Origin: an uncultured Gammaproteobacteria bacterium
Lineage (GTDB): Bacteria; Patescibacteriota; Microgenomatia; UBA8517
Assembly (NCBI GenBank): GCA_964583105.1
Contig: CAZOUV010000001.1
Span: forward strand, 65,617-129,616
Direction of reading: 5' to 3'
Length of the DNA stretch: 64,000 nucleotides
This document shows, piece by piece, positions 21,720 through 63,607 of this stretch. Position numbers and translations under genes: made by a program. Under the pieces are notes generated by a model. That model saw only the letters and a program-made list of their open reading frames with translations, made no database searches and was not told where the DNA came from. Numbering within the stretch: the stretch's first letter is position 1; each line of letters starts with the position of its first letter.

Positions 21720-21769
21720 ATATTAAATGCTTTAACATGATAGACAATGAGTGTTAGAATAATTGCTAT

Positions 21770-43489: not shown

Positions 43490-44707
43490 ATGAATATTTG
43501 CATTCTTACACATACTTTTCCCAGAAACGAAAAAGATAGCTCTGCTGCTTTTATGAAGGATTTTGCCCAAGGTTTAGTTTCCGTGGGTCACAGGGTTTTT
43601 GTTCTTACTCCTTTTGATAAAGAATTTAAACGCGATAACGATACTTTTAAGGTTGTTAACTATAAATATATTTGGCCGGATTTTTTGCACAGACTTGGTT
43701 ATTCAAGATCGATGGGTGCAGATGTAAATCTTAAACTTATTAATTTTCTTCTTATCCCCTTTATGTCGTTATTTTCCACAGTTTCTCTTATCAAACTTGT
43801 TAAAAAAGAAAAAATAGAGCTTATAAATGTTCATTGGATATTACCAAACGGTGTTGCTGCATATATTTGTTCTTTTATAACAAAAATTCCATATGTAGTT
43901 ACTCTTCCGGGAACGGATGTATATCTTGCCGGCAAAAATTGTATTTTTAAAAATATTGCCAAAATTATTGCAAACGCATCGTCCGGAATTGTTTCAAACA
44001 GCAAGTTTTTGTTAAAAAGGTTTTTATCTTTTAAAATTAAAAAAACAAGAACTGCAGTTATTCCTTACCCCGTAGACGCTTCCATTTATAGACCTTTTGT
44101 AAACAATGTTAGTAGGTTAAAGAATATGCTCGGAATATCTGAAAAAGATTCTGTTATTTTGGCAGTCGGAAGATTGGTTTACAAAAAAGGTTTTGGATAT
44201 CTTTTGGATGCTATTCCCGATGTTTTAAAAGAGTTACCAAACACAAAACTTATTATCGGTGGGTCGGGAGACTTAAAGGGAGATCTTATTCAAAAAACAA
44301 AAAACAACAGTATTGAGGATAATGTTGTTTTTGCAGGAAATATAAATAGAGATGAAATTTTGGATTACTATAATTTGGCTGATATTTTTGTTACCCCTTC
44401 AATAATTGATGAAAAGGGAAATTTTGATGGAGGACCCGTGACCTCATATGAATCTATGGCTTGCGGAAAGCCCCAAGTTGCAACAAACATTTTGGGAGTT
44501 TCTGATATTATTGTTGACGGGGTAAACGGGTATAAAGTAAAACCCAAAAACTCCAACGAATTATCCGACGCAATAATCAAGTTATTGAAAGACAAAAGCA
44601 AAAGAAAAAATATGGGAGAAGTAAACAGGAAATTAATAGCCAAAGAATTCAGTATAAGAGCGATAGGATCGAAATATGATGAAATTTTTAAAGAAGTTAT
44701 CAAATAA
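43490..44707 (+). CDS. GT4 (GT-B) glycosyltransferase
   Basis: First ATG at 43490 ('MNICILTHTFP'); TTG at 43460 is upstream in frame; C-terminal GT4-type fold; A9 tract at 43469-43477 just upstream. Confidence 0.65.
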   Translation: MNICILTHTFPRNEKDSSAAFMKDFAQGLVSVGHRVFVLTPFDKEFKRDNDTFKVVNYKYIWPDFLHRLGYSRSMGADVNLKLINFLLIPFMSLFSTVSLIKLVKKEKIELINVHWILPNGVAAYICSFITKIPYVVTLPGTDVYLAGKNCIFKNIAKIIANASSGIVSNSKFLLKRFLSFKIKKTRTAVIPYPVDASIYRPFVNNVSRLKNMLGISEKDSVILAVGRLVYKKGFGYLLDAIPDVLKELPNTKLIIGGSGDLKGDLIQKTKNNSIEDNVVFAGNINRDEILDYYNLADIFVTPSIIDEKGNFDGGPVTSYESMACGKPQVATNILGVSDIIVDGVNGYKVKPKNSNELSDAIIKLLKDKSKRKNMGEVNRKLIAKEFSIRAIGSKYDEIFKEVIK

Positions 44708-46730
44708 AACCTGGTTAATAATTACCGGAATTTTCTTTATTGCCGGTCTTATTACTCTTCCCGATTATGGAATTAACTGGGATACAATCAATCATCTTCC
44801 CAGGGGACAGGTTTACTTACATTATTTTTTAACAGGTAAAAAGGATTACTCGGATTTTCCTGATTTTTTCAAAGAATGGCAAAAGCTGGGAGAGTGGTAC
44901 TGGCAAAAAGGTAATACTATATTTTTTAAACCGGATATTCCCAAAGAGAGTGTACCAAGGGTAAGCCTTTATCAACGCGCTGGTGTTGATTTTAATTATT
45001 TCATGAAGAAAGACGGTGGACACCCACCGTTAAGTGATATTTTGTCTTCGTTTTTTAATTACATCCTTTTTCAAAAATTGGGAATTATCAACGATGTTGA
45101 TTCCTACAGAATTTACGGGATTTTATTGGCAACTTCCCTCGTGGGTCTTATCTTCTCTTGGGTCAGGAAAAATTACGGAAGTTTATCGGCGGGGGTGTCG
45201 GCTTTGAGTCTTTCCCTATATCCTTTGTTTTGGTCCGAGAGTCATTTTAACGGTGAGAAAGATATTCCCGAGACTGTTTATTTGAGTTTTTTCCTTTTTT
45301 CAATCTGGCAGACGGTAAAAAAGAAAAACTGGAAATGGATGATTCTTACAGGAATATTTTTTGGACTTGCTTTAGGAACCAAGTTTAACATTCTTTTTTC
45401 GCTATTTATCTTTTTGCCATGGATTTTGATTGTAGGCAAAAAAGTATTGGTTAAGAAGTGGTTTTGGATATCTTCAATTACTGCAATATTAATAGGTTTA
45501 ACAATATTTATGGGATCCTGGCCTTATTTGTGGGCAGACCCAGTTGCAAGAATCCAGGAAGTTTTTGGATTCTATAAAGAAATTGGGACCGAAGCTGCTA
45601 ACGGAATTAATACTTATCCGATTCTCGGAGTTTTATATACCACACCCATTCTGATTTTAATCCTTTTCTTTTTTGGTGTTGCCAAAACAATAAAAGATAT
45701 TATTAAAAAGAAAAATTACGAATTGGGATTATTGGCACTTATTTGGTTTTGTGTAACCATGGGAAGAGTCATCTTTCCTGGAGCTTCTATTTACGGTGGA
45801 TTAAGGCAGATTATGGAATATATACCTGCGATGACAATTCTTTCCGGAATAGGAGCGGGGTATATTGCACTAAAGATTAAAGAAAAGATTAAAGTAGAAA
45901 AACAATTGGTTGAAGCAGCTTTTGTTGTTTTGACAACTATATTGTTATTGATACCAATTATTAAAATACACCCTAATCAAAATGCGTATTTCAATTTTCT
46001 TATAGGTGGTCTTTCGGGAGCTAAAGAGAAGAATTTTCCCTATTGGGGAAACACTTTCGGCGCGGCATATAGACAGGCTGCGGATTGGGTTAATCAGAAT
46101 GCCGAAAAAGATGCAAATATGGCTTATGCATATGAACTTATTCCAAATATTCCGAGGATTTGGATAAGAACGGATATAAATCTTCACAATAGCAACAGAA
46201 GCGGATATTTAAGAAAGGGGGAGTATGTAATAACCCTTCCTTACCAAGGAACCGAAGACAGATCGTATTTTGATATGTATTTAAGAAAGTTTTTAAAACC
46301 CGTTTATGAATCAAAAGTTGACGGTGTTTCGGTTGTTACCGTTTGGAAAAACGACAATGAACATCTTAATCAAGATTGGAACGAAAAAATTGCAAGAAAT
46401 GTAAAACTAGATAAAACAGCAAATTCCATAGTTTTTACCTTACCTGAGTCTGAAGATATTTCCAGACTGGAAATTAATTATGGAGAGTGGGGTTGCTCCG
46501 AACTTGAAATCGGAAAGGTCTTCATATCCTTGGATGGGAATTTGTGGACCGGTCTTCCAGGAGTTCTTCCAAGAGACTGGTTGATTCCTGTTCAAGGACA
46601 GCAACCAAAGGAGGGTAAGTTTATCTATCCTTTCGTTGGGCAAAACACAAAATATATAAGAATAGAAGTTGCTCCGGAAGACACTTGTCTTAAAAATATA
46701 GTAAATTACAATATTTTTTATATTGAATGA
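44676..46730 (+). CDS. GT-C membrane glycosyltransferase (PMT/ArnT-related) with C-terminal lectin/discoidin-like domain
   Basis: 'LPDYGINWDTINHLPRGQ' loop motif; ~12 TM; C-terminal ~120 aa 'RLEINYGEWGCSELEIGKVFISLDGNLWTG...NTKYIRIEVAPEDTCLKN' beta-sandwich-like. Confidence 0.5.
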   Translation: MMKFLKKLSNKTWLIITGIFFIAGLITLPDYGINWDTINHLPRGQVYLHYFLTGKKDYSDFPDFFKEWQKLGEWYWQKGNTIFFKPDIPKESVPRVSLYQRAGVDFNYFMKKDGGHPPLSDILSSFFNYILFQKLGIINDVDSYRIYGILLATSLVGLIFSWVRKNYGSLSAGVSALSLSLYPLFWSESHFNGEKDIPETVYLSFFLFSIWQTVKKKNWKWMILTGIFFGLALGTKFNILFSLFIFLPWILIVGKKVLVKKWFWISSITAILIGLTIFMGSWPYLWADPVARIQEVFGFYKEIGTEAANGINTYPILGVLYTTPILILILFFFGVAKTIKDIIKKKNYELGLLALIWFCVTMGRVIFPGASIYGGLRQIMEYIPAMTILSGIGAGYIALKIKEKIKVEKQLVEAAFVVLTTILLLIPIIKIHPNQNAYFNFLIGGLSGAKEKNFPYWGNTFGAAYRQAADWVNQNAEKDANMAYAYELIPNIPRIWIRTDINLHNSNRSGYLRKGEYVITLPYQGTEDRSYFDMYLRKFLKPVYESKVDGVSVVTVWKNDNEHLNQDWNEKIARNVKLDKTANSIVFTLPESEDISRLEINYGEWGCSELEIGKVFISLDGNLWTGLPGVLPRDWLIPVQGQQPKEGKFIYPFVGQNTKYIRIEVAPEDTCLKNIVNYNIFYIE

Positions 46731-48133
46731 AGAAAATACATTGGGAACTTTTGTTTTTATTTTTAATTACCGTTTTATTTATCTTTGTTTATTCATATAG
46801 AATTCTTCAATTCCCCATTTTTGAAGATGAGGCAGAACTTCTTTTTTTTGCTGAAAGAATAATAAAGAACCCATTTAAGAATTTGTTAATATCTATGCAA
46901 TATGGTCCACTACCCGCCCTTTCTTGGTTTACGGCTTTTGGTGGATACCTTGTCGGAGATACCTTGTTGGGGGGGAGATTGGTAAATGTTTTTTTTGCAT
47001 CCAGTCTTATTAGTTGGTTTTATTTAATTGGCAAAATATATAAACTTCCAAGAAGATTTTTTATTTTTGGATCACTTGTCATCTTTTTTTCTCCAATATT
47101 GCTTTTAAACTCAAGGGTGGCTTTATGGGATACTTCTGTAATGACATTCTCTGCATGGTCCTTATATTTTTTTCTACTTTACAGTAAAAACAAAAATATA
47201 CAAATTATGTTAATTTTTATTTTGATGACTTCAATTTCACTACTGATAAAATTTACTTCATTTTTTATCCTACCGTCTATATTGATAATTTCTTTACAAC
47301 ACAAATCGAAACATTTTTTAAAAATTATTGCTATTCCGATAGCTCTATCCTTAATATTTGTGGCTTTGTTTACAGGATCATCTTTGGAAGATGCAGGAGT
47401 AAGTTTGATCCAAAAAGGCAATAATATTGAAGCTATTTTAAAAATTAAGGAAAATATTTACCTTTTTATAAATTGGGCAAAGATTTATTATTTGCCGTTT
47501 ATGCTATTTCCTTTATTGTTTTTGCTTATTTATCGTAAACATAAAAAAGAAAAGATTTGCGAATTATTAATTTTGATGGCAATTTGGTTTACGACCTCTT
47601 TATTGATGATGATTTTCCTGAACAGATTTTTTTATCCGAGACATATTTTAATTTTGCTAGTGCCGTTAACGGTTTTAGCTTCTTATCTATTAACTCGTAT
47701 CAGATTTTCTATGGCCATATTTTTATTACTATTAGTTATTGTCTGGAATTTTCCTTTATTTAAAAATATAGTTATCAGTCATCATTTGGCAAAAATTGCA
47801 AAAGAAGATCGATTTCAATATTTTGAAGATTATACTTCAGGGATAAACATTGATAGTATTTCTAATGCAATATCAAGGGTGTTGGATGGCAAACAGACAG
47901 TTGTTTGGACCGATAAGAGTTGGGTGATGAGGTATGGTTTGGAAAGAAGTTTTAAAAATTACCAAAATGTTAGTTTTAGAACATTTGAAAACAAAGAGAA
48001 TATAGTTTTTGACAAAAAAGACAATAATCTTGTTATTGCCAATAAATGGGAGCCAGGTAACATAAAAGATTTGAAACTATTGGAAGATTTCAGTTGGAAT
48101 AATCACAAACATCAATATTTATTTTCTTTTTGA
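46727..48133 (+). CDS. GT-C membrane glycosyltransferase (ArnT/PMT-like)
   Basis: 'FPIFEDEAELLFFAERI' DE motif; ~11 TM; C-terminal soluble domain. Confidence 0.55.
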   Translation: MKKIHWELLFLFLITVLFIFVYSYRILQFPIFEDEAELLFFAERIIKNPFKNLLISMQYGPLPALSWFTAFGGYLVGDTLLGGRLVNVFFASSLISWFYLIGKIYKLPRRFFIFGSLVIFFSPILLLNSRVALWDTSVMTFSAWSLYFFLLYSKNKNIQIMLIFILMTSISLLIKFTSFFILPSILIISLQHKSKHFLKIIAIPIALSLIFVALFTGSSLEDAGVSLIQKGNNIEAILKIKENIYLFINWAKIYYLPFMLFPLLFLLIYRKHKKEKICELLILMAIWFTTSLLMMIFLNRFFYPRHILILLVPLTVLASYLLTRIRFSMAIFLLLLVIVWNFPLFKNIVISHHLAKIAKEDRFQYFEDYTSGINIDSISNAISRVLDGKQTVVWTDKSWVMRYGLERSFKNYQNVSFRTFENKENIVFDKKDNNLVIANKWEPGNIKDLKLLEDFSWNNHKHQYLFSF

Positions 48134-50799: not shown

Positions 50800-51836
50800 A
50801 AAATTATCCTCTTGTATCTATTCTTATGGCCAATTGGAATGGTGGGAAAGTATACGAAGATACACTATCTTCGCTTTCAAAAATAACCTATCCGAATTGG
50901 GAACTAGTGGTTGTAGATAACGGTTCTTCTGACGGAACAACCAAACTTCCACTTAATCGGAAGTTTGGTATTAAAAAATTTAAGTTAATAGAAAACAAAA
51001 CAAATTTGGGATTTGCTCCGGCCAATAATCAAGGATATGAAGTCTCAAGGGGTAAATACATTCTTCTTTTAAATAACGACACCTTGGTGGAAAAAGACTT
51101 TTTGGAAATTATGGTTAAAAAAATGGAAAAAGACGCAACTATTGGGGTAATGCAGCCCAAAATAAAGATGATGGATAATCCCGAGCTTTTGGACAATGCA
51201 GGGTCTTTTTTTACCAATATTGGATTTCTGGAACACTGGGGATTTATGAAAAATGACGGACTGGAGTTTAATATAGAAAAAGATGTGTTTTCAGTGAAGG
51301 GCGCATGTATGCTTACAAGAAAAAGCCTAATTGAAAAATTGGGTTTATTTGACGACGATTTTATATCTTACTTTGAGGAAAGCGATTACTGTTGGAGAGT
51401 TTGGCTTGCTGGTCTCAGGTGTGTATTTTACCCGGCAACTTTTATCCGTCATAAAGTGGGTTTTACCATAAGAAGACTTGATGTCGGAAACTTAAACTGG
51501 CATTACTATAAAAATAGGATATGTTCTCTTATAAAGAACTTGGGGATAGCGAGATTATTCCTTATTCTACCCGTTCATCTATGCATTTCCGTTGCAATTT
51601 CAATCGCATTTATTCTTAAGGGGCAACTATCAAGTTCTGCGATAGTCTGGAAGGCAATATGGTGGAATCTGGTTAATATCAGAAAGACACTAATTAAACG
51701 TAAAAAAGTTCAAAATATGCGAAAAGTGAGTGATTCTTTACTTTTCAAAAAAATATCAAGACCCATCGACTTAAAAATGTTTATTGGTGATTTTGCCAGA
51801 GTCAGTAAGGATATTTCCCTAAGAAAAACTAGATGA
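50796..51836 (+). CDS. Family 2 glycosyltransferase with C-terminal membrane segment
   Basis: 'VSILMANWNGGKVY...LVVVDNGSSDGT', 'LLNNDTLV', 'YFEESDYCWRVWLAG'; C-terminal TM helix. Confidence 0.65.
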   Translation: MKNYPLVSILMANWNGGKVYEDTLSSLSKITYPNWELVVVDNGSSDGTTKLPLNRKFGIKKFKLIENKTNLGFAPANNQGYEVSRGKYILLLNNDTLVEKDFLEIMVKKMEKDATIGVMQPKIKMMDNPELLDNAGSFFTNIGFLEHWGFMKNDGLEFNIEKDVFSVKGACMLTRKSLIEKLGLFDDDFISYFEESDYCWRVWLAGLRCVFYPATFIRHKVGFTIRRLDVGNLNWHYYKNRICSLIKNLGIARLFLILPVHLCISVAISIAFILKGQLSSSAIVWKAIWWNLVNIRKTLIKRKKVQNMRKVSDSLLFKKISRPIDLKMFIGDFARVSKDISLRKTR

Positions 51837-53064
51837 TTTTTGGTTTTGGAACCGGAATTATGAATTTTCCCCCCGCCCTTTTATAATATTCGAGTTTTTG
51901 AATAATCGGTTTTGCGTAATTCCAAGAAAGGATTAAAAGGTAGTCCGGAGGATTTTTCTTTATTTCTGCTACTTTCAGAATGGGTATATGTGTTCCGGGT
52001 GTAAATAGACCTACCTTAAGTGGATTATCGTCAACTATGTATTCCAGGATTTTTTTATCAATTGCAAAATAGTTTAAAAGGGTAGTGGATCTTCCCGGAG
52101 CTCCGTAACCTGCGATTTTTTTGCCCTGTTTTTTAAGCTTAAGGAGCATTTTGTTTAAATCAGTTTTTGTTTTTTTGATTTTCTTAAAGAAAATATCATA
52201 AGTGGGAATTTTATTAAGTTTATTTTCTTTTTCCAATTTCAAGTATTTTGAAACCGATTTCGAAGTTTTAAATTTACCTATACTTTTTTGAACAAATATC
52301 ATTAAAGATCCTCCTTGAACGGGAGTTTTTTTAATATCAACTATTTTCATTTTGAATCTTTGGAAAAATTTACTTAAAGGTGAAATTGCCAGATATGAAA
52401 GGTGTTCATGATAAATTGAATCGAAAACATTATCTTTGATTAGGTTTAAAACATAAGGAAATTCGATAATAAAAACACCGTTGTCGTCGAGAAGTATGTT
52501 CACCGCTTTAACGATTTCATCCAAATCGTTTATGTGAGCAAATACGTTGTTGGCCGGAATTATTTGTGCCTTGCCGTATTTTTTGACAATTTTTGCCGAG
52601 ATTTTTGTATTAAAAAAATCCGCAATTGTGTAAATGCCTTCAGCCGTAGCAGTTCTTGCGATATTTTTTGCAGGATCAACCCCAAGCACTTTTAAGCCCC
52701 CTTTTTTGAATTCTTTAAGAAGTGTTCCGTCGTTACTTCCAATTTCTACAACCAGACTCATTTTGGTAGGTTTGATTTTTTTTATGACCGTTTCGGCGTA
52801 GGTCACAAAATGATCTTTCATTACACTTGATAAATAAGTATAGGAAGAAAACATTAATTCAGGATTTACAACATGAGAAAGCTGGAGCTGTCCGCAGTCT
52901 TTGCAAAAGTTCACCTTAAGAGGAAAGATATTTTCTTTGCTGTTTAAATCTTTCTTTTTAAGGAGATTATTTGGTGGGGGACTATTACCTAGATCGATTA
53001 CAGGTTTTAGATCTATCGACTTACATAGGCGACAACGCTTGAGAATAAATGCGGGTTTTGTCAT
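51829..53064 (-). CDS. NDP-hexose C-methyltransferase family protein (TylCIII/EvaC-like; Zn-ribbon + SAM MTase + C-MTase C-terminal domain)
   Basis: N-terminal 'CRLCKS...CKDCGQLQL' Zn-ribbon (Methyltransf_13-like), 'VVEIGSNDGTLLKEFKKGGLKVLGVDP' SAM site, ~410 aa like TylC3. Confidence 0.6.
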   Translation of the reverse strand: MTKPAFILKRCRLCKSIDLKPVIDLGNSPPPNNLLKKKDLNSKENIFPLKVNFCKDCGQLQLSHVVNPELMFSSYTYLSSVMKDHFVTYAETVIKKIKPTKMSLVVEIGSNDGTLLKEFKKGGLKVLGVDPAKNIARTATAEGIYTIADFFNTKISAKIVKKYGKAQIIPANNVFAHINDLDEIVKAVNILLDDNGVFIIEFPYVLNLIKDNVFDSIYHEHLSYLAISPLSKFFQRFKMKIVDIKKTPVQGGSLMIFVQKSIGKFKTSKSVSKYLKLEKENKLNKIPTYDIFFKKIKKTKTDLNKMLLKLKKQGKKIAGYGAPGRSTTLLNYFAIDKKILEYIVDDNPLKVGLFTPGTHIPILKVAEIKKNPPDYLLILSWNYAKPIIQKLEYYKRAGGKFIIPVPKPKII

Positions 53065-53453
53065 TTGACAAGGGTAACTCTTACGATTTCTTTCTCGTAT
53101 TTTTTCTGATCCCTTTCCTCGGTCGTAAATACGTAGAAGACTGTGTCTTCGAGAAACCTGGTTGCGTGAATTACATTCGGCCCAGTAAGAACCAAATCCC
53201 CAGCCTTCATTAATACGCTCTGTATTTTTGCCTTTGGCTTATCTGCCGGTTTTTCATAGTATCTTAATTTACCGCTTTCAAGAATAATCCAGTGATGATC
53301 CCTTTTGTGATAATGGTTTGCTCGGAGAGTACCTTTCTTGCTTGTAATTCTTAAAATCGACTTGACGCGGATTTTGTCGGGATCAAGAATTCTGGTAATT
53401 CCCCCCCTTTCGTCAATAAATTCTGGTTTGGTATGAACAATCTTTATTTTCAT
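53061..53453 (-). CDS. Cupin-fold sugar-nucleotide isomerase/epimerase (FdtA/WxcM-like or WbuC-like)
   Basis: 130 aa single cupin; 'ANHYHKRDHHW' His cluster, 'GPNVIHATRF'; lies between rfbB and the C-methyltransferase. Confidence 0.45.
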   Translation of the reverse strand: MKIKIVHTKPEFIDERGGITRILDPDKIRVKSILRITSKKGTLRANHYHKRDHHWIILESGKLRYYEKPADKPKAKIQSVLMKAGDLVLTGPNVIHATRFLEDTVFYVFTTEERDQKKYEKEIVRVTLVK

Positions 53454-53459
53454 AGAATA

Positions 53460-54488
53460 CTAGCGATTGTAATTTATGGAATTTACAAAATCAACAACCA
53501 TCTGTTTAACAAGACCTTTTTTTCTCGATTTGATTAAAGGTTCCCACCACCACCTGTTATTCGCGTACCAAAAAACGGTTTTTTTAAGCCAGTTTTCAAA
53601 AGAATCTTCCGGTTTCCATCCAAGTTTTAAAATTTTTGAATTGTCTATGGCATACCTGAAATCATTAACAGCTCTATCTCCGACAAATCCTATTAGAGAA
53701 GAATCTTCACCAAAAATATTGACAATATTTGTAGCAACTTCTAGATTTGTTTTTTCTACTCCTCCCACGCAGTAACTTTCCCCGATTTTTCCGTTTTTTA
53801 TAATCAAATCAACCGCTCGGTTATGATCGTCAACGGATATCCACGATCTTATGTTTTTGCCTTCTCCAGCAAGAGGAATCTTTTGTTTATTAAGAATTTT
53901 AGTAATGAAATTCGGTATCATTTTTTCGGGATCTTGATAAGGACCGAAATTGTTTGAACAATTTGTAATGGTCACCGGAAGACCGTATGCAGTGTAATAA
54001 CTTTTAACCATTAAATCGCTTGCTGCCTTACTTGCGGCATAAGGACTTTTTGGATTAAGATGTGTATTTTCATTAAAAGGGGGATCATTTGGTTTCAATT
54101 CACCGAATACTTCATCCGTAGAAATATGATGAAACCTTTTCCTTCCGTGTCTAAGGCAGGCATCTAGAAGAACGCATGTGCCCGAAACATTGGTTCTAGC
54201 AAAAACCATCGGATCTTCAATGGATCTGTCGACATGGCTTTCTGCCGCAAAATGTACAACCAAATCCACATCTTTAATGACAGAATCAACATCGTATTTG
54301 TTGACTATATCTCCCTTGAAAAATGTATAATGCGGGTTTTTGTCAACTCCCTTAAGATTTTCCAAATGTCCGGCGTAAGTTAATTTATCAAAATTTACTA
54401 TATGATCTTCGGGGTATTTATTAAGCCAATAGCGGATAAAATTGCTTCCTATAAAACCCGCTCCGCCGGTAATTAATAATTTAGACAT
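53460..54488 (-). CDS. rfbB: dTDP-glucose 4,6-dehydratase
   Basis: 'LITGGAGFIGSNF', 'LTYAGHLENL', 'HFAAESHVDRSIEDP', 'TNVSGTCVLLDA', catalytic 'YAASKAASD'. Confidence 0.9.
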   Translation of the reverse strand: MSKLLITGGAGFIGSNFIRYWLNKYPEDHIVNFDKLTYAGHLENLKGVDKNPHYTFFKGDIVNKYDVDSVIKDVDLVVHFAAESHVDRSIEDPMVFARTNVSGTCVLLDACLRHGRKRFHHISTDEVFGELKPNDPPFNENTHLNPKSPYAASKAASDLMVKSYYTAYGLPVTITNCSNNFGPYQDPEKMIPNFITKILNKQKIPLAGEGKNIRSWISVDDHNRAVDLIIKNGKIGESYCVGGVEKTNLEVATNIVNIFGEDSSLIGFVGDRAVNDFRYAIDNSKILKLGWKPEDSFENWLKKTVFWYANNRWWWEPLIKSRKKGLVKQMVVDFVNSINYNR

Positions 54489-55179
54489 AGATTTTCCACC
54501 AGAATTTAAACATGCTTAACAATAATTTGAAAATATTTCTTGTATCCGTGATCTTACTTGCACCCGCAAATCTAGGTCTGTAGGGTGAAGCAATCTCGGC
54601 AATTTTAAGACCTCTTTTTTGAAATTCTATCAGTGTTTCAACCAGGCAAAATAGTCCAGAGTTTGAATCTATTGTAAGTTTGGTAAGTTCCTTCCTTTTC
54701 CAAATATAAGACCAATGCACATCTTCGTACTTGATACCAAATAATAGTCTATAAAGAAGCATTCCTCCGTAAGAAAGAATAAATCTGTATAAATCATAGT
54801 CTATTCTTTTTCCCCTTATTCCGATGGTTAAGTCATAATTTCCCATTACCTTAATGCTGTTTACCATATCTCGTATAAGATCTTGCCCGTTTCCCTGCAT
54901 GTTTGCGACATAATCTTTTTTTGCTGTTTTTATTCCTATAGCCAATGCTTTCGCATAGCCGAAGTGTTTTTGAGAAATTACATTTACTCTTTTAAATTTT
55001 TTCCCAAAAGATTTTATAATTGCGGGAGTTTTATCTTTTGAACCGTCATCGATAATTATTATTTCGAAATTTGAAACAAGTTGGGGAAGATTTTTTAATG
55101 TATCATCCAAAACATAGCCTATTGAATTTTCTTCGTTATAAACAGGAATAATAATTGAAAGAGACGGACTCTTTTTCAT
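54481..55179 (-). CDS. GT2, DPM1-like polyprenol-phosphate glycosyltransferase
   Basis: 'LSIIIPVYNEENSI', 'EIIIIDDGSKDKT', 232 aa with no TM. Confidence 0.6.
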   Translation of the reverse strand: MKKSPSLSIIIPVYNEENSIGYVLDDTLKNLPQLVSNFEIIIIDDGSKDKTPAIIKSFGKKFKRVNVISQKHFGYAKALAIGIKTAKKDYVANMQGNGQDLIRDMVNSIKVMGNYDLTIGIRGKRIDYDLYRFILSYGGMLLYRLLFGIKYEDVHWSYIWKRKELTKLTIDSNSGLFCLVETLIEFQKRGLKIAEIASPYRPRFAGASKITDTRNIFKLLLSMFKFWWKIYV

Positions 55180-55208
55180 TTGAGCCGATTGTATGGATAA
55201 AGCCGGAG

Positions 55209-55916
55209 TTAGTCAAGAAGACCAAGACGCATTTTTAACGCTTCACTAAACATTGAATATGCTGTTTTAAAATTACCAAGGCTTGTTTTGCCCGCTTTTC
55301 TTGGTTTGTAGTAGGATTTTGCTTCAACAACTTTAAAATTATTTTTTAATGCTTTAATAACTATCTCTGTATCAAAAAATGGTGTTACGGAATTAATTTT
55401 AATTTTTTTGAATATTTCTTTTCTGTACGCCTGTGACCATCCCACATCTTTATACTTAAGACCAAAAAGAAGATATATCATAGCTAAATATCCCCAAGAA
55501 AAAAGTTTTCTAAGAGGTGTGTAATCGAAACGATTGGTCCTAACCCCCAAAACAATATCGGCTTTTTCTATCTTTTTAAGAAGGTCCACTTGATCCGAGA
55601 ATGGCTGTTGTCCATCACCTTCTATATATAGTATTGTTTCCTTTCTTGCATTTTTGATTCCTGTTTTCCATGCCGTTGCCAAACCCATATTTTTCTTATG
55701 ACTAACAGCTCTTACGTTTTTATATTTATTGGCAAGATTTTGGGCAACCTTTCCGGTTTTATCGCTAGACCCGTCGTTAATAATAATAATTTCGAAATCT
55801 TCGCAGATTTTATTTGCGTAAAAATTCGTATCTTTGATAAGTTTAGGCAAGTTTCCTTCCTCGTTGTATGAGGGGATGATTACGGAGAGGGATTTATTGA
55901 ACTTAAAGGTTTTCAT
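55209..55916 (-). CDS. GT2, DPM1-like polyprenol-phosphate glycosyltransferase
   Basis: 'LSVIIPSYNEEGNL', 'EIIIINDGSSDKT', 235 aa with no TM. Confidence 0.6.
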   Translation of the reverse strand: MKTFKFNKSLSVIIPSYNEEGNLPKLIKDTNFYANKICEDFEIIIINDGSSDKTGKVAQNLANKYKNVRAVSHKKNMGLATAWKTGIKNARKETILYIEGDGQQPFSDQVDLLKKIEKADIVLGVRTNRFDYTPLRKLFSWGYLAMIYLLFGLKYKDVGWSQAYRKEIFKKIKINSVTPFFDTEIVIKALKNNFKVVEAKSYYKPRKAGKTSLGNFKTAYSMFSEALKMRLGLLD

Positions 55917-55938
55917 TCGTGATATTATATTTCAAGTC

Positions 55939-56667
55939 ATGCTTAAAAGCCATTATAAAGATGTGTTTCAAAATCAGTTTAGACATTGGTGGTATTTGGG
56001 AATGGCCGAAATAAACAAAATTCTCTTAAATAAATATCTGCCTAAAAAACACAATCTTAAAATACTTGATGCCGGGTGTGGTCCAGGTGCTATGCTTAAG
56101 GTCCTTAAAAGTTATGGAGAAGTTATCGGAATTGATTTATCGGACGAAGCTTTGAAATATGCAGGTACGATTGCTAAAGTTCAAAAGGGAAATATCATCA
56201 AAACAAAATTTAAAAAAGAAAGTTTTGATCTGATTATCTGTATGGATGTTCTTTATCACACATGGGTTAGGGACGAAGCCTTGGCTTTGAGGGAATTTGC
56301 AAGGATAATAAAAAAAGGAGGTCTTCTTCTATTAAGGGAACCTGCGTATGATTGGATGAGAGGAAGAGAGGACAGAGGAAGTCTTACAGCAAGAAGGTTT
56401 TCGAAAAAAAGATTAAAAAAATCCTTAACCGATAATGGATTTGATGTTGTCAGAATGTCCCATGCAAATTTTTTTCTTTTTCCGGCCGTTCTTATTATTC
56501 GGCTTTTAACAATGGCTAAAATTAAAACAGGTAAAAGTGACATGATTTTTCCTTCTAAGTTGATAAATTCAATTTTTGTTTATTTATTAAAGACCGAAGG
56601 TAATCTTATGAAATATCTGTCTTTACCTTTCGGAAGTTCTTTAATCTCTGTTTCAAGAAAAGTATAA
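55939..56667 (+). CDS. Class I SAM-dependent methyltransferase
   Basis: First ATG at 55939 (an upstream in-frame start at 55834 would overlap the divergent gene by 83 nt); 'ILDAGCGPGAMLKVL', 'LLLLREP'. Confidence 0.65.
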   Translation: MLKSHYKDVFQNQFRHWWYLGMAEINKILLNKYLPKKHNLKILDAGCGPGAMLKVLKSYGEVIGIDLSDEALKYAGTIAKVQKGNIIKTKFKKESFDLIICMDVLYHTWVRDEALALREFARIIKKGGLLLLREPAYDWMRGREDRGSLTARRFSKKRLKKSLTDNGFDVVRMSHANFFLFPAVLIIRLLTMAKIKTGKSDMIFPSKLINSIFVYLLKTEGNLMKYLSLPFGSSLISVSRKV

Positions 56668-56676
56668 TAATCCTTC

Positions 56677-57738
56677 ATGTACAAAGATTTATTTGAGAAA
56701 GCAAAACTAAATGAAAGAAAAAGATTAAACCTACCGGAGGGTATAAGTGAAATTAAAGGAAAAAGGGTTTTTAAGATGCTTGATGTCATACTTCCCGAAT
56801 CAGTAATTTTGCCACATAAACAAGTAACAACTGGGGTTATTGAAAAACTAACCTGTATTTATGGAGAAGTATTTGTGGTTTATTTAAACGAAAAAGGGAA
56901 AATAATTAAAGTCTTTTATCTCGACTCAAGAAAGAAAGATAACATTACAATCCCCCTCGGTGTTTATCATTCCATTGTTGCAATTTCTCCGGTTGTTTTA
57001 AAGGAAGAGATGGGGCAGCCAAAAACAAGTTTATATGATTCCAAAAAAGATAAAATATTTGCTCAATGGGGAAAAGATGTTATGAGAAATGTAAACGAAA
57101 GTATCCGAAGATTTTATGCGATAGGCCTTTACGCAAAAAAACCTTGGGAAAAATTCCTTTCGCGTTTTAAATTCTGGGAAGAACCATATGAGGTTGTTGA
57201 CAGAATGCTTCCCGATAGGGGGGTGATAACGGAGTTGGGTTGTGGTGAGGGACTTCTCTGTAATTACCTTGCAATTGCCAAACCCCAAAGAAAAATAATC
57301 GGAATAGAATTGGTCTCCCAAAGAATGAAATTGGCAGAAAAAGGAATTAAAAACACTTCATATAAGGTGGGAGATGTTGTAAAAACTCCTTTTAAGAAAG
57401 CAGATGCATTTATTCTTTTCCATGTTCTTCATCATCTTCCGGGTAAAAAAGCACAAGAAAAGGTATTGTTAAAAGCAAAAAATGCTTTAAATAAAGGCGG
57501 AAAACTTATAATTGTCGATGTGCATGTAACTTTTACTCTTAAATATCTTGCTGCTTGGGTTGCCGATCACTTTCTTGTCCCTTGGGTTTTTGAAAAAAGG
57601 TTTTTTACTCGAGCCTATTTCAGAACCGAACGGGAATGGAAAAAGACTCTTAATAATTTAGGGTTTCGTGTAAAAACAAGAGTTGAAACCAGAGGAAGAC
57701 CCTTCCCCAATATCGTTTTTGAGTGTAATCTGCCTTGA
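56677..57738 (+). CDS. Two-domain protein: N-terminal cupin-like (WxcM/WbuC-like) domain fused to a class I SAM methyltransferase
   Basis: N-terminal ~130 aa beta-rich '[16 protein letters not shown]'; C-terminal '[12 protein letters not shown]', '[12 protein letters not shown]', 'GGKLIIVDV'. Confidence 0.5.
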
Positions 57739-57796
57739 TGTCATTTATCCGAATTTATTGGACAAAACAGATTGTTTTAAATATACTTCTTCTCAT

Positions 57797-58894
57797 ATGA
57801 TTCCTCTTGTTGATGTCGGAAGGTTGCATAAACCCTTAAGAAAAGAGATTGATGCTGCCATCAAAAAAGTGATTGATTCTTCACAGTTTGTTTTTGGAGA
57901 AGATTTATCAAAATTTGAATCTGAATTTGCAAAATATTGCGATTGTAAATACGCACTTGGCGTAGGAAACGGCGGCGATGCATTAAGACTTGCGATTTTG
58001 GCTTTGGGAATAGGTCCGGGTGATGAAGTTATTTCCGTAGCCAATACTTTTACAGCAACCATAGACTGCGTTATCCATGCAGGAGCAAAACCGGTTTTGG
58101 TGGATTGTGACGAATACTTCAATATAGATGTAGATCAAATAGAAAAGGCAATTACTAAAAAAACCAAAGCTATTATCCCTGTTCATCTTTATGGTCAACC
58201 GGCCAGAATGGATAAAATTATGAAAATTGCTAAAAAGTATAAGTTATTTGTTATAGAGGATTGCGCACAGGCCCATGGAGCGGAACATATGGGTAAAAAA
58301 GTCGGATCTTTTGGGAATGTCGGTTGTTTTTCCTTTTATCCGGGGAAAAATTTGGGTGCAATGGGGGATGGGGGAATGCTTGTGACTAATAATAAATCTT
58401 TGTATAACAAACTTGAAAAATTAAGATTTTTCGGACAGGGAAAAAATAAGTATCATCATGAATTCGTTGGTTTTAATTCAAGATTGGATAATATCCAGGC
58501 TGCCATATTAAGAATAAAACTGAAATACCTTGATAAATGGAATATTCAAAGAAAAGAAATAGTTAAAACTTATAACAAACTTCTTGATGGGGTTGTTGAA
58601 ACTCCCAAAGAAATTAAAGACGCAAAACATGTATATCACCTCTATGTAGTAAAAACCCCAAAAAGAGACGGACTTCTTGAATACCTTGCCAAGAATAATA
58701 TTTTTGCAGGTATTCATTATCCGATTCCGCTTCATCTTCTTGATGCACATAAAAAATTACAATACAAAAATGGAGATTTCCCATCATCCGAGAAAAATGC
58801 AAAGACAATAATTTCTCTTCCCGTTTTTCCAGGAATGAGTAAAAGTGAGATTAAAGAAGTGTCTACCTCAATCAAAAAATTTCTTGTCAAATGA
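57797..58894 (+). CDS. DegT/DnrJ/EryC1/StrS-family sugar aminotransferase (PLP-dependent)
   Basis: ATG at 57797 (TTG 57683 upstream in frame); '[14 protein letters not shown]', '[14 protein letters not shown]', '[16 protein letters not shown]' (Lys for PLP). Confidence 0.85.
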
Positions 58895-61068
58895 AGATTC
58901 TTCGGATCACAAAAAAAAAGTATTTATTGGTAGCAATCTTATTGGTGTCTGCAATTCTTCGTTTTGTTGCTGTAAAACCGGGATATAATCCATACCATGG
59001 AGATGAAACTGCGATATGGGGAAGCGCTTCGGTAATGGTTAAGGAAGATACATTAGATCCCGGAAGATATGATTATCCCGGAACCGCTGCTACTATTAAT
59101 GCCTTCTTTTATAAATTTGTTTTTATCCCTCTTTCTTGGACAAAATTTACCCTTAGTAATTTTTGGGATATCGTAGATGGAAAGATAAAAATTCCGCTCA
59201 TCGAGAAAGAAAAGGATAAAATATTTGCAACACAAATAATAGGAGAAAGGGAAATAAACTCACTTTTTTGGTCAAGGTATATAACGGCGGCTTTTGGTGT
59301 AGGAACCGTATTTTTGATTTACCTTTTAGGAAAAAAAATGTTCTCCGAGGATATTGGTCTTTTGACATCATTATTTTTGGCATTTAATTATAAAAACGTA
59401 GTAAATTCTCATTTAGTGCTCCCAGATATTTACAATGCATTCTTTTTCATTCTTGCTATGATTGCATTTTGGAATTTGTATAAAAACAGTTCCGCAAAGA
59501 ATTATCTTTTGGCTGGGATTGCTGCAGGAATTTCATTCAGTGTTAAATATCAATCTTTCGTATTTTTACCGTTGCTTTTGATCCATCTAGCGATAAGTTT
59601 TAAAAACGGTTTTAGTCTGAAAAAACTTTTTGGCATTTATGCAATCGTTTCCGCATTTTCCATAATTCTTATTTTTCTTATTACGAATCCTTATTTTTTT
59701 ATAAACATAGAATATGTTTTTACCAAAATGAATGAAGAGTTTATAAAATATGGGATGGGAACAAATACTCTTAATCTTTTTCCTTATTCATACCTTTATC
59801 ATATTGATTATGGTCCAGTATTGTCTTTTATTGTGATATTGGGAACGTTGTCGGCAGTTTTTAAAGATAAATTCAAGAGTGTATTTTTACTTTCGGCAAT
59901 TGTCCCAGCATTTTATCTTTTCATATACTATTCAAGAGGTGGTTTCTACATAAGAAACTTTATTCCTTTGACACCGTTTCTTTTTCTTTTTGCTTCTAAC
60001 TTAATTTGCACCACAAAATTAAAAAAATGGTTTATTTCGATTCCTTTGATTATTCTTGCCATATATATCCCTGCCAAGAATTCGATAATCAGCTCTTATT
60101 GGTATACAAAACCATGGGGATATGAAATATTATCGAAGTGGCTAAAAGATCATATACCCAATGATGCGAAAATAGCATCCCACCCTTTTGACAGGTCTAT
60201 TTTGGCCGTTAAAACTAAAACTACGGAATTTTCTCCAAACGAAGCATTTTCCCTAATGGAACACAAGGAAAACGGTGCAGAATATGTGGTTGAGAATCTT
60301 GCATGGGCATCACTGCCTTTCTATTTTTGGATGAATTACAACTTAAATGAAGTAAACATTTTGTGGAATAAACCCGTTGATATTATGAGAAATACTTTTC
60401 ATGGTCTTGCTGCGGAAGAAATGCTGCGCTATATGATTTTTGCAAACGACAGATCTTGGCAAAGTCCTGATATGTTTTTTGTAATGGTCAAACTTCCCGA
60501 TTGGCCAAAAACCGAAATGAAAGAGATTGCGAAATTTGACTTTAATCAAAATTATCAAGATTGGAAAAACTATGGTGGATCAGGACAGGCAAAATTTACG
60601 TACGAGAATGATATGATATCTTTTTCGCCCGGGGGAGAAAGATACCCAAATGTAAGAATAACATCTCCATTAATAAACATTAAATCCGGACATCTTTATA
60701 ATATTGAAGGATTTATTAAGACTGAGAAAATTCTCAATTCCAAGGAACGGGAAGGATTTTTAAGAATTGATTTTTGGACTGACAATCCAGATTTAAATAA
60801 AACTGGCATAATATCCAGTGTCTCTTCAAGGGTCTACGGAACTGATAATTGGATCAAAAAAGAAATATTCGAAAGAGCACCCGAAAATGCGAAATATCTG
60901 ACTGTTAGTTTTCAAGTCTATTCGACTTCGGTTACAAAAATTTTGTTTGATAATATATCCATTAAGGAGTCTTTTTCGCCCGTCGAAAATATTACTAAAA
61001 AAGAACCATATATCAACAAGAAAATTGATTTAAACTTCCTTTATCCCAATTCGCACGGAAATTTATAA
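58891..61068 (+). CDS. GT-C membrane glycosyltransferase (PMT/ArnT-like) with C-terminal carbohydrate-binding-module-like domain
   Basis: '[16 protein letters not shown]' DE motif; ~12 TM; C-terminal ~180 aa jelly-roll-like ('[13 protein letters not shown]...[23 protein letters not shown]'); A9 tract in codons 7-9. Confidence 0.55.
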
Positions 61069-61069: not shown

Positions 61070-62452
61070 ATGACATTTATATCTATTCAATTTGTAATTT
61101 TTTTTCTTATTGTCTCCTTTCTCTATTTTCTGATCCCCTATAAATTTAGATGGCTTCTTTTACTTATTGCAGGAATAATTTTTTACATAAGTTTTATTCC
61201 TGTTTACGTTTTGTTTTTGTTTTTTCTGATAATTGTTGACTACTTGGCGGCCATATTTATTTCAAAATCAAAAGGTAAGAGAAGGATAGTATTTTTGTTC
61301 GTTAGCATACTTTCAACTTTAAGCGCTCTTTTTATTTTTAAATACTATAATTTCTTTGTTGTAAATTTCGAAAGTTTTATTAGATTTTGGGATTGGAATT
61401 ATAGTCCTAAGCTTTTGAAATTTGCGCTTCCCGTTGGATTGTCCTTTCATACTTTTCAGAGCCTTGCCTATGTTATTGAGGTTTATAGAAAGAAACAAAA
61501 AGTAGAGAAACATTTGGGAATATATGCGCTATACGTAATGTTTTATCCCCAACTTATGGCGGGACCAATTGAAAGACCGGGACATATGCTTCCTCAATTT
61601 AGAAAAAAACATTATTTTGAATATGAACGGGTAGTCAGGGGTTTAAGGTTGATGCTTTGGGGAGCGTTTCAAAAAGTGGTAATTGCAGATCAGGCGGCAA
61701 AGGTCGTCAATTATGTTTACGGAGGAGCACACCTTCATAACGGTTTAAGTTTAATTATTGCAACAATACTTTTTACTTTTCAGATATTTTGTGATTTTGA
61801 TGGTTACACTAATATTGCAAGGGGTGCCGCAAGGGTGATGGGGTTTGAACTTATATTAAACTTCAAAAGACCGTATTTGGCAGAAACTTTTAAGGATTTC
61901 TGGCATAGATGGCACATTTCTCTTTCTTCCTGGTTTAGAGATTATATTTATATTCCTTTAGGTGGAAGCAGGGTGGGATATTTAAGACTTGTTTTTAATA
62001 TAATGGTCACCTTCGTTCTAAGTGGACTTTGGCACGGAGCCAATTGGACATTTATTGTTTGGGGAGCTCTTCATGGAATCTTCCTTGTCCTTTTCAGCGA
62101 CAGACTTAAATCCAAACTTTTGGTTTTTTTGTTTGTAACATTTGCCTGGATATTTTTCAGGGCAGAGAGTATGGATGTTGCTATCCACATAATAAAAAAT
62201 CTGTTTAATCGTTGGTCTCTGGAGATTATGGGCGGAAAGTTCTTGGATATGAAATTAATCAATTGGATAATTCTTCTTGCAAGTATTTTTGTAATGTTTG
62301 TTATACACAAAATACAGGAAAGAAAAAGTATCCAAAAAATATTTGAAAATAGACCTGCTTTTTCAAGGTGGGTAGTTTATTATGCCGTTCTTATTTTAAT
62401 TTTGGCATTTTCGTTTAGGGGTAGAGAACATTTTATTTATTTCCAGTTTTAA
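61070..62452 (+). CDS. MBOAT-family membrane-bound O-acyltransferase (AlgI/DltB-like)
   Basis: 'FWHRWHISLSSWFRDYIYIPLGG' with the invariant His; ~10 TM. Confidence 0.85.
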   Translation: MTFISIQFVIFFLIVSFLYFLIPYKFRWLLLLIAGIIFYISFIPVYVLFLFFLIIVDYLAAIFISKSKGKRRIVFLFVSILSTLSALFIFKYYNFFVVNFESFIRFWDWNYSPKLLKFALPVGLSFHTFQSLAYVIEVYRKKQKVEKHLGIYALYVMFYPQLMAGPIERPGHMLPQFRKKHYFEYERVVRGLRLMLWGAFQKVVIADQAAKVVNYVYGGAHLHNGLSLIIATILFTFQIFCDFDGYTNIARGAARVMGFELILNFKRPYLAETFKDFWHRWHISLSSWFRDYIYIPLGGSRVGYLRLVFNIMVTFVLSGLWHGANWTFIVWGALHGIFLVLFSDRLKSKLLVFLFVTFAWIFFRAESMDVAIHIIKNLFNRWSLEIMGGKFLDMKLINWIILLASIFVMFVIHKIQERKSIQKIFENRPAFSRWVVYYAVLILILAFSFRGREHFIYFQF

Positions 62453-63607
62453 ATGAGAAAAGAAAAAAAAGAAGTTAAAAATTTTTTATTGAAGTTTCTG
62501 GTTTTTTCCTTTCCTATTCTTTTGGTTGTGGGATACATAGTTTATACAGGACTTGTTCTTCCTGTTGATTATTTTACTTTTAGGGCTTGGGAGGCATTAA
62601 GTGTTTACAAAAAGAACGATATTTTATCTGGTCCATTTTACCCCAACATGCATTTGACTAAAACGGAATTGGGGGATTTGTCAGGGCTTTCAAAATATCC
62701 TGTCGCAAAAGAAGTTGAGTGGTATACGGATAAATATGGATATAGAATAAAAAATTATAAAGATAGAAATTACCAAATAGTCATTATTGGAGACTCAAGT
62801 ATTGCTGGATCAGCATTAACTCAAGACAAAACAATTTCCGAAATAATATATCAAAAAACAGGTTTGGGAGTTTATCCTTATGCCCCCTCCAACTTTAATA
62901 ATTATTTAAAAGAAAAACGTTTCAAAGATAATCCTCCTAAAATAGTGGTTATTGGATCTGTGGAGAAGCTGGTTTTGGGTATGTCTGAAGTTTTACCAAA
63001 AGAGGAGCTCGTTTCTAAAAATATTCCATGGTCTTCTTGGGGGATTGTCTCCTATTTTGCTATTATGGAAGACAGGCTTAAAAAAGATACTTTTGTAAAT
63101 TACATTCGAGCAAGATTTAAAGAAATACCGAGATACTTAAAAGAACCCGGTTTTAAACCCAGGAAACCAGGCGTTCTTACTATCGAAAATCCAGGTTTTG
63201 GATTAAGAAGTGAGATGGTTTTTTATTCGGAACCCGAGGCTTACTTTAAATTATGGAAGGAAAGTGAAATTAATAGGGTTGTTTTTGCACTTAATCAGTA
63301 TATAGAAGAATTGGCTAAAACAAGTACAAAACTTATTTTTATGCCTATTCCCAACAAGGAAAATATTTATTGGAGACAGGTTAAGGGTGGAATTTGGACA
63401 AACAATCTTAAAAGGTTGGTTGATAAAGCTAATGAATCGGGAATTGCAACTGTTGATTTATGGTCGGTATATAATAGCTTGTACAATAAAAATCCAGACA
63501 GGCTTTTATACCATACGGACGATACGCATTGGAATGAGTATGGGGTAGATGTTGCCAGCGATAAATTAATTGAGAAGATAAATGAAATTAGTAAAGAAAA
63601 TAATTGA
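62453..63607 (+). CDS. AlgX/AlgJ/DltD-like SGNH-type acyltransferase partner of the MBOAT
   Basis: N-terminal TM anchor, 'VIIGDSSIAGS' GDS block, 'HTDDTHWNEYG' DxxH block; directly follows the MBOAT gene. Confidence 0.6.
   Translation: MRKEKKEVKNFLLKFLVFSFPILLVVGYIVYTGLVLPVDYFTFRAWEALSVYKKNDILSGPFYPNMHLTKTELGDLSGLSKYPVAKEVEWYTDKYGYRIKNYKDRNYQIVIIGDSSIAGSALTQDKTISEIIYQKTGLGVYPYAPSNFNNYLKEKRFKDNPPKIVVIGSVEKLVLGMSEVLPKEELVSKNIPWSSWGIVSYFAIMEDRLKKDTFVNYIRARFKEIPRYLKEPGFKPRKPGVLTIENPGFGLRSEMVFYSEPEAYFKLWKESEINRVVFALNQYIEELAKTSTKLIFMPIPNKENIYWRQVKGGIWTNNLKRLVDKANESGIATVDLWSVYNSLYNKNPDRLLYHTDDTHWNEYGVDVASDKLIEKINEISKENN

Follow-up and report, generated by a model that had tools for sequence, protein, structure and literature searches.

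The window analyzed here is a 64-kb (64,000-nucleotide) stretch of contig CAZOUV010000001.1, and toward its end it encodes a putative sugar biosynthesis and delivery cassette made up of two divergent gene units (Table 1). The minus-strand unit comprises two family 2 glycosyltransferases (GT2a and GT2b, which are paralogous partners), a predicted dTDP-glucose 4,6-dehydratase (RfbB), a 130-aa cupin, and a predicted sugar C-methyltransferase (C-MT). The plus-strand unit comprises a class I S-adenosylmethionine (SAM)-dependent methyltransferase (MT1), a fusion of a WbuC cupin to a second methyltransferase, a DegT-family aminotransferase, a GT-C glycosyltransferase, and an MBOAT/AlgX-like gene pair. 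An original prediction, made by reading this DNA, had called six of these genes, and the open reading frame (ORF) map confirmed all six at their coordinates. The genes it had listed are real, and the SAM methyltransferase (55939), the cupin-methyltransferase fusion (56677), and the DegT aminotransferase (57797) were all recovered with Pfam and NCBIfam models; the prediction had missed the two GT2 genes, the GT-C gene, and the MBOAT/AlgX pair. Five of the proteins (cupin, RfbB, aminotransferase, fusion, and C-MT) occur as exact sequences in the protein collection, where all five are assigned to one NCBI contig of 151,413 bp.

The genes are tightly packed. In the minus-strand unit 8 nt are shared by the GT2a and RfbB genes and 4 nt by those of the cupin and C-MT, and only 6 nt separate RfbB from the cupin. 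On the plus strand the start of the GT-C gene overlaps the stop of the aminotransferase gene by 4 nt. The divergent start codons of GT2b and MT1 are 22 bp apart (55917-55938), so both promoters must sit within opposite coding regions. A scan for promoter and terminator consensus sequences gave no clear excess over shuffled sequence.

Table 1. Genes of the cassette, and GT-C and flippase genes across the 64-kb window.
Feature	Length (aa)	Position	Strand	Family evidence
C-methyltransferase (C-MT)	411	51829-53064	minus	PF08421 + PF13489 + PF08484
Cupin, FdtA/QdtA-like	130	53061-53453	minus	family profile and AlphaFold2 fold
RfbB/RmlB	342	53460-54488	minus	TIGR01181, PF16363
GT2a	232	54481-55179	minus	PF00535, 79.5 bits
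GT2b	235	55209-55916	minus	PF00535, 91 bits
MT1, class I SAM methyltransferase	242	55939-56667	plus	Methyltransf_11, 72.6 bits
WbuC cupin-methyltransferase fusion	353	56677-57738	plus	TIGR04366, Methyltransf_11
DegT/DnrJ/EryC1 aminotransferase	365	57797-58894	plus	PF01041
PMT/ArnT-type GT-C	725	58891-61068	plus	PF02366, PF13231
MBOAT O-acyltransferase	460	61070-62452	plus	PF03062, 84.4 bits
AlgX-like SGNH domain protein	384	62453-63607	plus	PF16822, 40.2 bits
GT-C paralogues (examples)		277-1821; 24177-25793; 26812-32972 (four in a row); 44676-48133 (two); 58891-61068		
Wzx-like flippases (two)		1837-3300; 36736-37983		

The dehydratase gene can be assigned from its profile score to dTDP-glucose 4,6-dehydratase (RfbB/RmlB), as had been predicted. 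The protein scores 427.1 bits against TIGR01181, above the equivalog cut-off of 365.1, and 260 bits against PF16363, and the translation contains the motifs STDEVFG (TDE) and PYAASK (YxxxK). RfbA, RfbC, and RfbD had been noted as missing from the window, and this holds. No NTP_transferase match was detected among window ORFs of at least 120 aa, and tblastn with RmlA found nothing in the window; the same query recovered RmlA in four control loci. Equivalogs of RmlC and RmlD were likewise not detected in the window.

The gene at the end of the minus-strand unit had been read as a TylCIII-like Zn-ribbon C-methyltransferase, and profile searches bear this out. PF08484, the C-terminal domain, is present in full (186.9 bits, E = 3e-55, cut-off 23.5; residues 248-406 cover profile positions 1-160 of 160), together with PF08421 (76.4 bits, cut-off 31.3) and PF13489 (42.3 bits). 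These place an N-terminal Zn-ribbon, a class I SAM domain, and the C-terminal domain in series. The protein aligns over its full length to the solved enzymes MtmC (4rv9, E = 3.9e-91), KijD1 (5t64), and TcaB9 (3ndi; E ~2e-64 for both). Of the four Zn-ribbon cysteines, C54 and C57 never vary among 37 homologues, whereas conservation of C11 and C14 is at least 90%. Residues Y75, H177, Y218, E220, and H221 are also invariant in this set, and the YHEH motif at 218-221 falls opposite YHEH in MtmC and YDEH in KijD1. All five have counterparts in the catalytic set of TcaB9 (Y76, H181, Y222, E224, and H225). By these sequence features the product is an NDP-hexose C-methyltransferase of the TylC3/MtmC/TcaB9/KijD1 family. 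The family is large: an exhaustive search with the homologue P0024 as query returned 4,266 clusters (50% identity) at E ≤ 1e-30, and 4,896 of 8,000 scored candidates were C-MT homologues at E ≤ 1e-10. Few of the best 120 relatives carry names, and all of those that do are Patescibacteria, Levybacteria, or "uncultured bacterium."

The 130-aa cupin is weakly recognized by Pfam (Cupin_2, 23.4 bits, under the cut-off of 27.2), and its assignment draws on its homologues and on its predicted fold. We found 274 homologues, many of which carry PF05523 (FdtA), including some at 50-57% identity. In an alignment of 34 homologues D14, R16, G17, R44, N46, H47, Y48, H49, D52, H54, and H96 are invariant. The family profile matches FdtA (2pa7, E = 1.3e-5) and QdtA (4zu7, E = 2e-5) over their full length; H47 and H49 align on the catalytic His pair of FdtA (His49/His51, in HAH), and R16 and H96 align on an Arg and a His of FdtA. 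The profile scores the Y17R/R97H mutant of QdtA (27.7 bits) above wild-type QdtA (20.7 bits). Thoden and colleagues in 2015 reportedly described a stereochemical role for the Arg/His pair of FdtA and for Tyr17/Arg97 of QdtA. An AlphaFold2 model of the cupin (pLDDT 91.7) was compared with the PDB via Foldseek, and the top 27 matches are all 3,4-ketoisomerases, with template-modeling scores of 0.67-0.79 over ~130 columns; the longer RmlC-type epimerases rank below them. The protein is thus a candidate NDP-sugar 3,4-ketoisomerase of the FdtA/QdtA fold, and the relationship to sugar isomerases that had been proposed for it is upheld in both profile and fold.

The cupin and C-MT appear to belong together. 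Related loci were collected in a metagenome scan with a C-MT alignment as query, and a cupin of this family directly adjoins the C-MT in 20 of the 56 loci that have enough flanking sequence. Fusions of the two proteins occur (P0024, P0103, and P0106), and in triple fusions with a short-chain dehydrogenase/reductase (SDR), namely P0367, P0415, and P0469, the domain order SDR-cupin-C-MT is that of the operon in the window. One fusion pairs an RmlC-like cupin with a C-MT (P0490) and another pairs RmlD with a C-MT (P0375). From these sequence relationships cupin and C-MT are a conserved, often fused functional module, and the adjacency and fusions suggest that dehydratase, cupin, and C-MT act consecutively on one substrate. 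Taken together, the multi-domain fusions P0367, P0415, P0469, P0489, P0375, and P0372 include SDR-cupin-C-MT proteins of 856-879 aa, the same arrangement with an added GT17 (1162 aa), a C-MT joined to an FkbM methyltransferase, RmlD-C-MT, and a C-MT-GT2-methyltransferase protein.

The aminotransferase (PF01041, 396 bits) is closest to the nucleotide-sugar C-3 type represented by QdtB and DesV, judging from its scores against solved structures. On the C-3 side it scores 428 bits with 7b0d, 363 with QdtB, 347 with 7n63, 314 with DesV, 294 with WlaRG, and 243 with WbpE. C-4 enzymes score lower: 206 bits for perosamine synthetase, 176 for ArnB, and 153 for 4piw (dTDP-4-amino-4,6-dideoxygalactose transaminase). 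The Lys in SFYPGKNLG suits an aminotransferase rather than a dehydrase; it was identified by reading the translation, with no alignment to an established PLP lysine.

Two further methyltransferases lie between the divergent start codons and the aminotransferase. MT1 has only generic methyltransferases as PDB relatives and carries one transmembrane-like hydrophobic segment at its C-terminus. The fusion consists of a WbuC cupin (~56677-57081; TIGR04366 at residues 3-131, 50.6 bits, cut-off 42) and a 218-aa class I methyltransferase (57082-57738; Methyltransf_11 at residues 186-279). In the other 119 of the 120 best-scoring homologues the methyltransferase stands alone (211-237 aa, 61-72% identity) and aligns to the C-terminal 58-64% of the fusion, and Met136 of the fusion corresponds to the usual methyltransferase start in these relatives. 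Among these 120 homologues the WbuC fusion appears only in this genome. It may have arisen either when a WbuC gene was recently captured in frame or when a stop codon was lost. The WbuC part has no relation to the 130-aa cupin family that hhalign could detect. An AlphaFold2 model of the fusion returned only generic class I methyltransferases in Foldseek (DnrK, RedM, and CysG). A role as sugar N-methyltransferase was considered for the conserved 213-aa enzyme, and the searches gave no signal for it: no sugar N,N-dimethyltransferase was among the 50 best Foldseek hits, and the PDB sequence search was generic.

Potential delivery functions were identified on both strands. The seven best solved matches of GT2b are DPMS (5mlz, E = 2e-14, residues 8-218), ArnC (three), and GtrB (three), so that by sequence it is a candidate enzyme of the DPMS/ArnC/GtrB type, which would attach a sugar to polyprenyl phosphate; its score against the ArnC model NF007986 (72 bits) is far under the cut-off of 529. 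The GT-C protein matches PF02366 (52.5 bits, cut-off 22.7) and PF13231 (44.1 bits, cut-off 26.1) and has at least seven transmembrane-like segments, and no solved sequence relative of it was found. Directly 3' of the GT-C gene, both here and in the related locus L086, lie the MBOAT and AlgX-like genes, a pair that suggests O-acylation of an extracytoplasmic glycan. Taken together, GT2, GT-C, and MBOAT/AlgX suggest an Arn/PMT-like delivery via a polyprenyl-phosphate carrier, which we infer from family membership, gene coupling, and synteny.

The cassette is conserved in Patescibacteria (Candidate Phyla Radiation [CPR], Microgenomates-like), in at least three other contigs. These three, L083, L085 (GCA_043812605.1), and L086, are syntenic with the window, with C-MT identities of 65, 61, and 55%, respectively, and the nearest named homologues come from metagenome-assembled genomes of Patescibacteria, Levybacteria, Woesebacteria, and Microgenomates. 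One arm of the shared layout reads (AlgX-MBOAT)-GT-C-aminotransferase-213-aa methyltransferase-(MT1); the other reads GT2-GT2-RfbB-cupin-C-MT. GT2a, GT2b, and the GT-C gene that follows the aminotransferase are kept in all three. MT1 is present in L083 and L086 and absent from L085. The methyltransferase that adjoins the aminotransferase in these contigs is 213-217 aa long and has no WbuC part.

The C-MT family also occurs in other settings. Scanning genome contigs with the single C-MT protein returned only two distant loci, L001 and L002 (Paraglaciecola/Glaciecola), and these extend the family to glycan loci of proteobacteria. Each of these gammaproteobacterial loci has two tandem C-MT paralogues beside SDR and Gfo/Idh/MocA genes. 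In other Patescibacteria we identified an alternative module (L087 at 9611-13213; also L004, L012, and L028) that consists of an FdtA-like cupin, a C-MT, an extended SDR, and a Gfo/Idh/MocA protein. This module has no aminotransferase, so its product may be a neutral C-methyl sugar. The extended SDR is 48-77% identical across ~13 loci. It had been a candidate ketoreductase, which was dropped because its nearest NCBIfam models are 4,6-dehydratases, below cut-off; it may be the dehydratase of these loci. The Gfo/Idh/MocA neighbor (in L087 and others) was not used as evidence for C-3 redox chemistry, as its solved relatives are uncharacterized oxidoreductases. No Gfo/Idh/MocA homologue is present in the window, and the best window match to the extended SDR is RfbB, at 25% identity. 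L004 lies with L008 on one 136-kb metagenome contig (Ga0080064_1000326) as paralogous C-MT loci ~23 kb apart; one has a cupin, and the other is near a homologue of the 725-aa GT-C (47% identity).

How might these enzymes work together? We lean toward a single pathway that would produce a C-methyl-branched amino-6-deoxyhexose and deliver it to the cell surface. RfbB would convert dTDP-glucose to dTDP-4-keto-6-deoxyglucose. The FdtA-fold cupin and C-MT, acting as one module, would then enolize the keto sugar and add a methyl branch from SAM, and the QdtB-type, pyridoxal phosphate-dependent aminotransferase would convert the remaining keto group to an amine. Further methyl groups may be added by the conserved 213-218-aa methyltransferase and perhaps by MT1. 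One or both of the soluble DPMS/ArnC-like GT2 proteins would load the sugar onto polyprenyl phosphate, the 725-aa GT-C would pass it on, at the outer face, to an acceptor that is either a protein or part of the cell wall, and the MBOAT/AlgX pair may O-acylate the product. We infer the synthesis steps from family membership, and with them the order of reactions, the positions of methyl and amine, the carrier lipid, and the acceptor. A C-methyl amino sugar, maybe further methylated, was also what the original prediction arrived at, and it is still the most likely reading. The classical actinomycete combination of 3-C-methyl and 4-amino groups is not the obvious product of a C-3-type aminotransferase and an FdtA-like cupin. 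Among possible isomers we modestly prefer one that carries its amine on C-3 and its methyl branch on an adjacent carbon, formed via a 3-keto intermediate, because an FdtA-type isomerase would fit a C-3-type aminotransferase.

Several observations weigh against this proposal. One is chemical: together, an FdtA-type isomerase and a C-3 aminotransferase point to a pathway through a 3-keto intermediate that ends in a 3-amine, and canonical C-3 methylation of the 4-keto sugar would block both steps. Every solved relative of the C-MT places the methyl group on C-3 of a 4-keto sugar, and the same catalytic residues are kept here, which speaks against a novel regiochemistry. The cupin of the window has no match to PF05523 at E ≤ 0.01, and some of its relatives match the RmlC (PF00908) or CapF C-terminal (PF14667) models rather than FdtA, so it could be an epimerase. 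One related locus, L057, has a C-MT-cupin-aminotransferase trio in which the aminotransferase is nearer to perosamine synthetase (C-4) than to QdtB, so the cupin-C-MT pair is not tied to C-3 chemistry. Neither methyltransferase is specifically similar to sugar N,N-dimethyltransferases in PDB sequence searches or in AlphaFold2/Foldseek comparisons. A hydropathy scan found no transmembrane-like segment that could act as a membrane anchor in GT2a or GT2b; soluble DPM1-type enzymes exist. Finally, a thymidylyltransferase is absent from the window and from the syntenic loci. The L057 locus also runs counter to the expectation that such trios carry a C-3 aminotransferase, which makes the case for a 3-keto route weaker.

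Potentially addressing the chemical conflict, the methyl group could be placed at C-4 or C-2 beside a 3-keto group, or at C-5 before isomerization, any of which would be a possible route to a 3-amino-3,6-dideoxy-C-methylhexose. We count in support of this the locus L018, where a canonical FdtA (PF05523, 133 bits), an aminotransferase with 43% identity to that of the window, and a C-MT are contiguous. A more speculative way out is a methyl shift catalyzed by the cupin following C-3 methylation. Only tentatively do we suggest the fully specified version, in which cupin and C-MT, a dedicated pair that in some organisms is one fused enzyme, would yield a 3-keto sugar with the methyl off C-3 (e.g., 4-C-methyl-3-keto-6-deoxyhexose), the aminotransferase then gives 3-amino-3,6-dideoxy-4-C-methylhexose, and the sugar is displayed on the surface via the polyprenyl-phosphate/GT-C route. 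The 4-C-methyl intermediate could form in two ways: methylation at C-4 of a shared 3,4-enediolate, or canonical C-3 methylation followed by a cupin-catalyzed alpha-ketol (1,2-methyl) shift. To our knowledge, 3-amino-3,6-dideoxy-4-C-methylhexose is not a described bacterial sugar class.

Alternatively, the cassette could make two sugars. RfbB would then feed two branches, every enzyme (C-MT, aminotransferase, and cupin alike) would keep its canonical role, and the two paralogous DPMS/ArnC-like GT2 proteins would load different products. In one branch the FdtA-like cupin, C-3 aminotransferase, and methyltransferase would give a Fuc3N- or ravidosamine-like 3-(methyl)amino-3,6-dideoxyhexose; in the other, C-MT and a 4-ketoreductase would give a neutral 3-C-methyl-6-deoxyhexose (virenose- or evalose-like). 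The ketoreduction could be carried out by the C-MT as well, in the way that bifunctionality has been reported for MtmC, its best solved match (PMC3539893), or by an SDR at 42582-43487, which is kept ~9 kb away in the window, in L083, and in L086. This reading runs into the coupling of the genes: the cupin overlaps the C-MT, and is repeatedly fused to it, rather than to the aminotransferase, and many loci have a cupin and C-MT but no aminotransferase, so the C-MT is the partner of the cupin. We consider a two-sugar cassette unlikely, although it fares best among the alternatives to a single C-methylated amino sugar.

Next comes the classical scheme known from actinomycetes, in which the 4-keto sugar is methylated at C-3, the cupin is an epimerase (C-5 or C-3/5), and amination at C-4 gives a 4-amino-4,6-dideoxy-3-C-methylhexose of the kansosamine/sibirosamine type, further O- or N-methylated. 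The identity of the C-MT catalytic residues with those of C-3 methyltransferases would be explained, as would the PF00908 and PF14667 matches among cupin relatives and the perosamine synthetase-like enzyme of the L057 trio, and NovW and NovU provide a precedent for an epimerase ahead of a C-MT. Set against this are the aminotransferase, which scores 363-428 bits with C-3 enzymes versus 150-206 with C-4 enzymes, and the cupin, which is nearer to FdtA/QdtA than to RmlC-type proteins in both profile and fold and retains the isomerase His pair and the FdtA-type Arg/His. The classical product is therefore a doubtful one for this locus. If it is nevertheless the true product, "antibiotic-type" sugar chemistry would extend to the surface glycans of an uncultured phylum.

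The wider window is best described as a glycosylation superlocus. It encodes at least 11 GT-C paralogues of the PMT_2/PMT type, many GT2 and GT4 glycosyltransferases, several methyltransferases, and flippases, and it contains no housekeeping genes or tRNAs. Genes for polyketide synthases, nonribosomal peptide synthetases, or an aglycone were not identified in the 64 kb. Approximately nine large ORFs (400-612 aa; 3263-4978, 8824-10350, and 12686-24158) have no Pfam match or match PTPS_related only and have 6-11 transmembrane-like segments; these polytopic proteins may represent additional, divergent GT-C enzymes, or polymerases. The window also encodes, at 41315-41812, a small DUF5667 protein that is retained in the same neighborhood in L083, L085, and L086.

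That the cassette decorates a secreted small molecule (an antibiotic-type glycoside), or that the sugar genes are unrelated neighbors of the glycosyltransferases, is very improbable: antibiotic clusters are where these enzymes have been studied most, but the 64 kb hold glycosyltransferases, GT-C membrane proteins, flippases, and methyltransferases in place of any aglycone machinery, the aminotransferase and GT-C genes overlap, and the arrangement is kept across genomes at 55-65% C-MT identity.

Patescibacteria are uncultured, host-dependent, and ultra-small, and their surface chemistry is essentially unknown. The conserved cassette probably encodes a surface epitope typical of them, one that would matter for attachment to hosts and for recognition by phages. 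All of the enzyme families are already known, as are C-methyl amino sugars from actinomycetes. In limited literature searches we found no description of the pairing of an FdtA-fold cupin with a C-MT, of this pairing combined with a C-3-type aminotransferase, or of its coupling to DPMS/ArnC-like GT2 and GT-C delivery in Patescibacteria. A regiochemistry not seen before, or an added role of FdtA-type cupins, could emerge from the dehydratase-cupin-C-MT module, whose enzymes are compact tools for the glyco-engineering of branched amino sugars.

Compared with known systems, the C-MT resembles the C-3-methyltransferases TylC3, EryBIII, MtmC, TcaB9, and KijD1 in its three-part architecture, its four Zn-ribbon cysteines (Zn-Cys4), and its Tyr/His/Tyr-x-Glu-His residues. 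Unlike them, it lies in a Patescibacteria glycan locus rather than an antibiotic cluster and overlaps (in relatives, is fused to) an FdtA-fold cupin; since no 2,3-dehydratase is encoded, it would act on a 2-hydroxy sugar. The pathways to dTDP-Fuc3N/Qui3N, mycaminose, and ravidosamine (RmlB, FdtA/QdtA/Tyl1a, FdtB/QdtB/TylB, and an N-modifying enzyme) share with the window an RfbB, an FdtA-fold cupin, a QdtB-like aminotransferase, and an adjacent SAM methyltransferase. Here, however, a C-MT is inserted and coupled to the cupin, there is no N-acyltransferase, the methyltransferases show no detectable relationship to TylM1 or DesVI, and the cupin has diverged too far to reach the Pfam FdtA model.

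Surface-glycan parallels also exist. In Coxiella burnetii the TylCIII homologue CBU_0691 was proposed in silico to act in synthesis of the lipopolysaccharide sugar virenose (PMC3539893), which likewise places a TylCIII-family C-MT on an NDP-4-keto-6-deoxyhexose destined for a surface glycan. Virenose is neutral and its pathway has no aminotransferase, and no cupin partner or GT-C delivery is described. Given this precedent (PMC3539893) and a family of 4,266 clusters, the remark in the original prediction that such chemistry would not be expected in a surface-glycan locus was overstated. The Arn (L-Ara4N) pathway and the actinobacterial Ppm1/Pmt system share with the cassette the logic of a DegT aminotransferase, a DPMS/ArnC-like GT2, and a PMT/ArnT-type GT-C acting outside the membrane. 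The cassette differs from these in its predicted dTDP-linked and C-methylated sugar, in its GT2 proteins without transmembrane anchors, and in the lack of a formyltransferase/deformylase pair. Finally, in the noviose pathway (NovT/NovW/NovU/NovS) a dehydratase, a cupin, and a TylC3-family C-MT form a consecutive module. There NovW is an RmlC-type 3-epimerase, NovU methylates C-5, and no aminotransferase takes part, whereas the cupin of the window is FdtA-like, not RmlC-like.

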